Below, in pieces: positions 39,016 through 39,569 of a DNA stretch of 64,000 nt. The position numbers and the translations under genes are program-made. Position 1 is the first letter of the stretch; every line of letters begins with the position of its first letter. The notes below the pieces were generated by a model. It searched no databases. It was not told the DNA's origin and saw nothing but the letters and a program-made list of their open reading frames with translations. Source of the stretch: Escherichia coli (GTDB lineage Bacteria; Pseudomonadota; Gammaproteobacteria; Enterobacterales; Enterobacteriaceae); NCBI RefSeq assembly GCF_041248615.1, contig NZ_CP158426.1; one strand, 5' to 3'.

Positions 39016-39338
39016 TTTTTTGCACGCCCGTATTCAACGGCTTCTTTAAGGAGTTCATTTTCCATCGTTTTTTTGCCGAGCAGGCGCTGGAGTTCTTTAA
39101 TCTGCTTCATGGCAGCAGCAAGTTCAGAGGCAGGAACGACCTGCTCTCCTGCGGCCACAGCAGTAAGACTTCCCTCCTGGTATTGCTTGCGCCAGAGAAA
39201 TAACTGGCTGGCTGCCACACCGTGTTGCCGGGCAACAAGGGAGACCTTCATTCCCGGTTCAAAACTCTGCTGAACAATAGCGATCTTTTCCTGTGTAGTA
39301 CGCCGTCTGCGTTTCTCCGGTCCTAAGACATCAATCAT
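38973..39338 (-). CDS. insC: IS2 InsC (OrfA)
   Basis: Start trimmed to [12 protein letters not shown]...; overlaps insD as expected for a frameshift-fused InsCD. Confidence 0.9.
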
Positions 39339-39429
39339 CTGCTCTCCAATGACTAGTCTAAAAACTAGTATTAAGACTATCACTTATTTAAGTGATATTG
39401 GTTGTCTGGAGATTCATGGGGCCAGTCTA

Positions 39430-39569
39430 CCTGTGTAGTACGCCGTCTGCGTTTCTCCGGTCCTAAGACATCAATCATCTGCTCTCCAATGACTAGTCTA
39501 AAAACTAGTATTAAGACTATCACTTATTTAAGTGATATTGGTTGTCTGGAGATTCATGGGGCCAGTCTA
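39430..39569. repeat. perfect tandem duplication of the terminal 140 bp of IS2 (IRL plus insC promoter and start)
   Basis: 39290-39429 is repeated exactly at 39430-39569, so the IS2 left terminus ...GGGGCCAGTCTA occurs twice in tandem. Confidence 0.85.

Follow-up and report, generated by a model that had tools for sequence, protein, structure and literature searches.

An exact tandem copy of the left 140 bp of IS2 in the chromosome assembly of Escherichia coli NRZ14408

Canonical IS2 of E. coli is a 1331-bp element of the IS3 family. Its right inverted repeat (IRR) spans 41 bp and its left inverted repeat (IRL) 42 bp; the OrfA operator occupies residues 39-48, a weak extended -10 promoter named P_IRL lies near position 60, and a junction promoter, Pjunc, has been described (PMC3299598). 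The left end acts as a donor solely in the minicircle insertion step, and in step I it is exclusively a recipient (PMC3299598). ISs that lack a target site duplication (TSD) frequently arise from recombination between identical ISs or from adjacent deletions (PMC11708052).

Transposase activity can itself place IS ends in tandem and in the same orientation. Head-to-tail dimers and minicircle junctions of this kind are known from IS2, IS911, IS30 (dimers, PMC9333248) and IS21, and their duplicated promoter-bearing ends can alter transposase expression. The locus described here likewise carries tandem IS ends in one orientation. Dimers and minicircle junctions bring the right end against the left end across a 1-2-bp spacer, whereas here the left end abuts nucleotide (nt) 140 of the element, an arrangement in which no Pjunc is possible. 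Ghosal and Saedler reportedly described in the late 1970s two rearranged IS2 elements of the gal operon, IS2-6 and IS2-7, with small internal duplications or rearrangements of IS2 sequence near an end and effects on outward or inward transcription. They are said to come from laboratory selection for gal expression and to have gained sequence other than a plain direct repeat of the terminal 140 bp; our literature search found no text describing IS2-6 or IS2-7. At the present locus a familiar element has a structural peculiarity of its own, one that falls under two general and well-known headings, nested IS insertion and recombination between ISs. The locus resembles products of those processes in lacking a TSD, in linking unrelated flanks and in having an IS inserted within another IS 1 kb away.

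We analysed a window of 64,000 nt that corresponds at 100% identity to positions 928001-992000 of the E. coli NRZ14408 chromosome (NZ_LT599825.1). The locus reads, in order, truncated ISEc38, a complete IS2, an orphan copy of IS2 nt 1-140 and island DNA (Table 1). The element belongs to IS2: it shares with the canonical element its length, its IRR and IRL, its orfA and orfB, and the A6G -1 frameshift window (AAAAAAG), intact at 39015-39021 (IS2 nt 409). The orfA product scores 273.4 bits against NCBIfam NF006928, 'IS2 repressor TnpA' (cut-off 229), and OrfB scores 700.8 bits against NF006918, 'IS2 transposase TnpB' (cut-off 597). RefSeq annotates 38110-39338 as a transposase with a programmed frameshift and leaves 39339-40036 without annotation. 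Compared with the IS2 of K-12 MG1655, the window copy differs at 60 positions, giving 95.5% DNA identity over 1331 bp. The isoform limit used by ISfinder is about 95% identity, and the window copy lies close to it. This variant lineage occurs at 99% identity or more in 983 E. coli records. A 5-bp TSD is absent at the window IS2, and a TSD marks an unrearranged insertion event, not the element itself.

Table 1. Features of the IS2 locus and its flanks, in window coordinates
Feature	Position	Strand	Evidence
Left flank: ISEc38 (ISL3 family) transposase gene, N-terminal end cut by the IS2 right end	36672..38098	-	RefSeq
Complete IS2 (variant lineage), 1331 bp; nt 1 = 39429, nt 1331 = 38099	38099..39429	-	both ends located
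IRR, 41 bp, TGGATTTGCCCCTATATTTCC, found once	38099..38139	-	pairs with both IRL copies
orfB frame (IS2 TnpB, catalytic part of OrfAB)	38110..39015	-	NCBIfam
orfA (InsC / IS2 TnpA repressor), 121 aa, intact	38973..39338	-	translation and NCBIfam
Repeat copy 1: nt 1-140 of the complete IS2	39290..39429	-	repeat search, Tandem Repeats Finder, string comparison
Truncated orfA' of 32 codons, belonging to the orphan copy: 16 from InsC, then 16 read through the inner IRL	39380..39478	-	translation, ORF list
Inner IRL, 42 bp, end of the complete element	39388..39429	-	
Novel junction GGGGCCAGTCTA / CCTGTGTAG, IS2 nt 1 joined to nt 140	39410..39449	.	
Repeat copy 2, orphan IS2 nt 1-140, with the complete IS2 on one side and the right flank on the other	39430..39569	-	100% identical to copy 1
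Outer IRL, inside the orphan copy	39528..39569	-	
Right flank: non-coding pheV-island DNA	39570..40036	.	

What sets the locus apart from canonical IS2 is an extra exact copy of nt 1-140, which gives it two left ends for one right end. The two copies are identical over all 140 nt with a start-to-start spacing of 140, by repeat search and by direct string comparison, and Tandem Repeats Finder assigns the array a period of 140 and a score of 560. Chance cannot produce an exact repeat of this length, and the window contains no other exact repeat of 30 nt or longer spaced by less than 3 kb. The left end TAGACTGGCCCC is present twice, terminating at 39429 and at 39569; as a 30-mer, TAGACTGGCCCCATGAATCTCCAGACAACC, it has exactly two matches, at 39429..39400 and 39569..39540 on the minus strand. 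The right end TGGATTTGCCCC has a single match, at 38099, and for both ends the chance expectation is 0. The IRR and IRL arms pair at 76% over 33 nt. The base at 39289 is T where the unit ends in A, and the base at 39570 is A where the unit begins with C, so the 140-bp boundaries cannot slide by even one base and the internal junction is unique. Microhomology is 0 bp at either boundary. Both copies carry the same four variant-lineage bases relative to K-12 IS2 (nt 13, 88, 109 and 133), and the donor was therefore of the same IS2 lineage.

The duplicated unit contains the 42-bp IRL and orfA codons 1-16 plus one base, the orfA ATG lying at nt 92 (39338). The published positions of the OrfA operator and P_IRL fall within nt 1-140, so both lie inside the unit. 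A sigma-70 consensus scan of 39200-39700 found no promoter, as expected for P_IRL, which is of the extended -10 type and lacks a -35 box (PMC3299598). The predicted orfA' stub is a mechanical outcome of the duplication. These results agree with the preliminary description of the window, which had placed an exact repeat of 39290-39429 at 39430-39569, recognised in it the IS2 left inverted repeat, the insC promoter region and the first codons, and seen two IS2 termini lying head to tail. Its statement that neither outer boundary has a 5-bp target duplication is likewise correct: GCAGG on the left is matched neither by CCTGT, the right flank at the inner boundary, nor by ATGTG, the right flank at the outer one. 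A K-12 copy of IS2 is flanked by ATAAC on both sides.

The window IS2 joins unrelated sequences, truncated ISEc38 on one side and island DNA on the other. The left-flank transposase scores 329 bits against NCBIfam transpos_ISL3, and intact ISEc38 runs from GAGCAGG into GTGGATGCTG past the IS2 junction point. We considered whether the right flank might also be ISEc38 by looking for an empty site; no genome has both flanks contiguous, and the right flank is not ISEc38. In strain 746 the right-flank DNA is preceded by CATGGTGGAT without IS2, and many other genomes also lack IS2 there. A TSD-less IS2 of this kind is usually explained by a deletion next to the element or by two IS2 copies having recombined.

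The uninterrupted flanks share a short motif at the point where IS2 lies. Their best local similarity sits exactly at both IS2 junctions (window 38085-38098 and 39570-39585), with 25 of 32 positions alike and E=0.23 when taken alone. In ISEc38 the sequence reads ATGTCCTGAGCAGG up to the junction point and GTGGAT-GCTGTATCCGG after it, and in strain 746 it reads ATTTCCATAGCATGGTGGAT and then ATGTGTATCCGG. The locus-internal coordinates compared were 2360-2420 in intact ISEc38, 2970-3015 in strain 746, and 2690-2714 and 4045-4056 in L007. A third, independent IS2 insertion, in strain 4FM with the TSD GTATC, lies 15 bp off in a related ISL3 element. The shared motif includes GTGGAT, which is similar to the start of the IS2 right end, TGGAT. 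The motif may mark a hot spot for IS2 insertion or may reflect end-like targeting.

The junction occurs in a single deposited genome. We searched with a 40-mer, AGATTCATGGGGCCAGTCTACCTGTGTAGTACGCCGTCTG, centred on the junction so that normal IS2 copies cannot seed a match. Megablast against 5,426 complete E. coli genomes found it at one place in one genome, NRZ14408. There was no match to the 40-mer among 72,556 plasmids, and none to a degenerate 37-mer covering both IS2 lineages in the GTDB species genomes and JGI metagenome contigs. A collection of 15 billion proteins contained none of the exact products of three junction-spanning ORFs. Two matches that seemed to share IS2 and the right flank proved to be fragmentary mosaics without the junction.

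The ISEc38, IS2 and island arrangement itself is found in three genomes only: NRZ14408, TUM9803 (Japan) and GF43 (Swiss chicken meat). Comparison with related strains, which the preliminary description had proposed, showed that TUM9803 and GF43 each carry a single copy of the 140 bp at the same locus, with a clean gap at 39290-39429. Over 8.2 kb around the site the three genomes differ in seven columns in all, six of them substitutions and one a 1-bp indel, with TUM9803 differing from the window in three and GF43 in six. Both single-copy elements have the same two flanks as the window and also lack a TSD. The missing TSD is thus separate from the duplication and older than it.

Genomes outside the three-genome group lack IS2 at this site and so provide no root for deciding whether the duplicated or the single-copy state is ancestral. 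The single-copy state of the relatives may be the starting state or may represent revertants; in either case a single-copy IS2 at the site must have come first. In principle the single copy could also reflect collapse of the repeat by short-read-first hybrid assembly. Five of the seven differing columns lie inside the 1.3-kb IS2 (38099-39429), and all five (nt 1056, 945, 944, 665 and 183) are sites polymorphic between the variant and K-12 lineages. This clustering suggests short gene-conversion patches between IS2 copies, not point mutation. We also considered nt 944-945, CA in the window and TG in the relatives, as a possible imported donor tract, but CA is the common state, present in 4,734 records, K-12 included, and the site is uninformative.

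The preliminary description had offered two explanations, a relic of an aberrant or abortive IS2 transposition or an assembly artefact. Both are still live, but nothing aberrant or abortive is required: ordinary insertion followed by recombination gives the structure. It had also read the locus as unusual for a simple insertion; the absent TSD, being common to the single-copy relatives, is not linked to the duplication.

A sizeable minority chance attaches to a one-off assembly or consensus artefact, in which the true sequence would be a single 1331-bp IS2 and the extra 140 bp would have entered at a repeat boundary while contigs were assembled, joined or polished. The whole duplication rests on one deposited assembly, its junction being present in one record across all collections searched. 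The two copies are 100% identical, both relatives are single-copy, and the block ends at an IS boundary, where graph assemblers break contigs and where joining of untrimmed overlaps gives just such a pattern. A systematic overlap error should, however, recur at other IS2 ends. The IS2 body matches 12 places in the NRZ14408 chromosome, and the junction is present at one of the 12. One of these copies, at 100990-102320, is 100% identical to the window IS2 over 1331 bp and has normal ends with a 5-bp TSD (GCAGA/GCAGA). The junction thus does not recur at the other IS2 places, and neither the window nor a 170-kb sample of the chromosome contains a further exact 30-mer repeated at a distance of less than 3 kb. 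The record is trimmed, is set to a dnaA start and has no end overlap. In a later paper from the same laboratory, the NRZ14408 genome paper is cited as the reference for PacBio RSII SMRT sequencing and Illumina libraries; if long reads were used here, as that citation implies, multi-kb reads would span the 1.47-kb structure. On balance the evidence leans to a real event.

We consider it about an even chance, with a probability near 0.5, that the locus is a genuine rearrangement of an ordinary IS2, private to NRZ14408, produced by insertion of IS2 into IS2 followed by homologous recombination. An IS2 would already have been resident at the site, as it still is in TUM9803 and GF43. An incoming IS2, probably a minicircle copied from the resident element or from an identical sister, would have entered the resident at nt 136-140 in the same orientation by a normal step-II reaction. 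Both ends attack the target in that step, and the attack would make the new joint between IS2 nt 1 and resident nt 140. Read in the window orientation, the nested pair would run from the resident IRR to nt 136, through the new IS2, and on from resident nt 140 to nt 1. It would contain perfect direct repeats of about 1.19 kb, one of which RecA-type homologous recombination could delete. A complete IS2 (38099-39429) would remain, followed by the orphaned first 140 bp of the resident (39430-39569), and the second insertion joint and the 5-bp TSD would be lost with the deleted repeat. Recombination between ISs usually restores a plain IS, whereas after the proposed crossover between nested copies 140 bp of one terminus would have stayed behind, forming a perfect tandem repeat.

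We infer this order of events, with its nested intermediate and recombination step, from a joint that lies at the IS terminus, a structure unique to one genome, single-copy relatives and identical, active sister copies. A terminal base of IS2 joined to an internal site without microhomology indicates a joint made by transposase. Restriction of the left-end donor role to the insertion step means that the observed joint fits normal insertion. The single-copy IS2 of TUM9803 and GF43 provides the starting point that nested insertion requires, and the identical sister with a clean TSD shows that the lineage transposed recently and supplies donors. We also count in favour of this route the nearby IS3-family insertion of one IS within another. 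Against the nested route, the target at nt 136-140 (ACAGG, beside an A-tract) bears no mark of a preferred IS2 target, and a similar product is possible without a full insertion. Origin from a tandem dimer or minicircle junction was rejected: no right end is present at the joint, and the sole IRR in the window lies 1.3 kb away.

The product could form without full insertion if a cleaved left end (3'-OH at ...GTCTA, + strand) were transferred to the same strand of a sister or replicating copy between nt 141 and 140, and replication or repair then fixed the 140-bp duplication. The junction suits such a transfer, joining an IS terminus to an internal IS2 site on the same strand without microhomology; IS3-family chemistry includes single-end, same-strand transfers such as the figure-of-eight step (PMC3299598), and a second recombination step becomes unnecessary. 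We nevertheless think this origin unlikely. The IS2 left end 'lacks donor function' in step I (PMC3299598), the IS2 literature searched contained no such product, and the final sequence predicted is the same as for nested insertion followed by recombination, so that nothing favours the one-ended transfer. A bolder version, in which the locus would be the footprint of the left end as lone strand-transfer donor between sisters, or a working IS2 with two left ends, changed transposase expression and mobility as a 1471-bp form, seems quite improbable; the in vitro work denying the left end a donor role in step I conflicts with a lone left-end transfer. A real but transposase-independent origin, by replication slippage, template switching or unequal sister exchange ending by chance at the IS2 terminus, is scarcely credible here. 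Tandem duplications of similar size do arise spontaneously in bacteria, and Tandem Repeats Finder extends the array by 7 nt, where the flank ATGTGTA resembles CCTGTGTA. The TGTGTA microhomology is, however, out of register by 1 nt: its copies are separated by 139 nt, so that the period expected from it is 139 bp and the joint GTCTAATGTGTAG, whereas the period observed is 140 and the joint is GTCTACCTGTGTAG. A microhomology-mediated duplication would show short identity at both endpoints, and 0 bp are shared. An endpoint falling exactly on the IS terminus has an a priori chance of about 1 in hundreds.

The surroundings are a graveyard of ISs at the integrase end of the pheV island, and the site affects no host gene and no resistance or virulence gene. 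An IS3-family element, bounded by 23-nt inverted repeats at 40485-40507 and 42057-42079 that are 96% complementary, contains a transposase pseudogene (40514-42041) with a frameshift and an internal stop. The element (40485-42079) sits in, and truncates, orfA of another IS3-family element (40037-40455), 1 kb from the duplication, and the relatives and strain 746 share the nested pair (40037-42079). Beyond it lies a 90-bp remnant (42106-42195) annotated as phosphoethanolamine transferase and missing its N-terminus, which adjoins the island integrase (42292-43554) and tRNA-Phe (43752-43827). Its presence in the relatives and strain 746 marks it as an old island relic, though a curious one in an mcr-1-positive strain. 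The first part of the window (1-31900) is a typical pheV-type pathogenicity island mosaic. It holds a kps cluster for capsule export and biosynthesis, and a CbtA/CbeA toxin-antitoxin pair accompanied by its usual DUF905/DUF932/antirestriction/JAB module. Among its ISs are copies of IS110 and IS1414, and ISEc12 (IS21 family), which interrupts an Ag43-family autotransporter gene. A 26-bp tandem repeat of 2.2 copies with 87% matches lies in an intergenic part of the island at 29671-29727.

The finding has little wider importance beyond strain NRZ14408. Were the duplication an artefact, it would be a single 140-bp error in the reference genome of a clinically notable mcr-1/KPC-2 isolate. If it is real, the inner IS2 is intact and predicted to transpose normally, and transposase could use the outer left end, predicting a 1471-bp form; no transposed 1471-bp copy was present in any genome searched with the junction 40-mer. 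Two tandem left-end segments would then lie upstream of orfA, and each would cover the sites at which P_IRL and the OrfA operator have been placed in published work. The 140-bp repeat would be metastable, with a predicted capacity to recombine back to plain IS2. The locus may interest those who study IS2 and IS3-family mechanism, and also those who curate IS annotation, since PGAP leaves the orphan end unannotated. If real, it would be a small natural example of an IS hitting its own copy, with recombination tidying the result.
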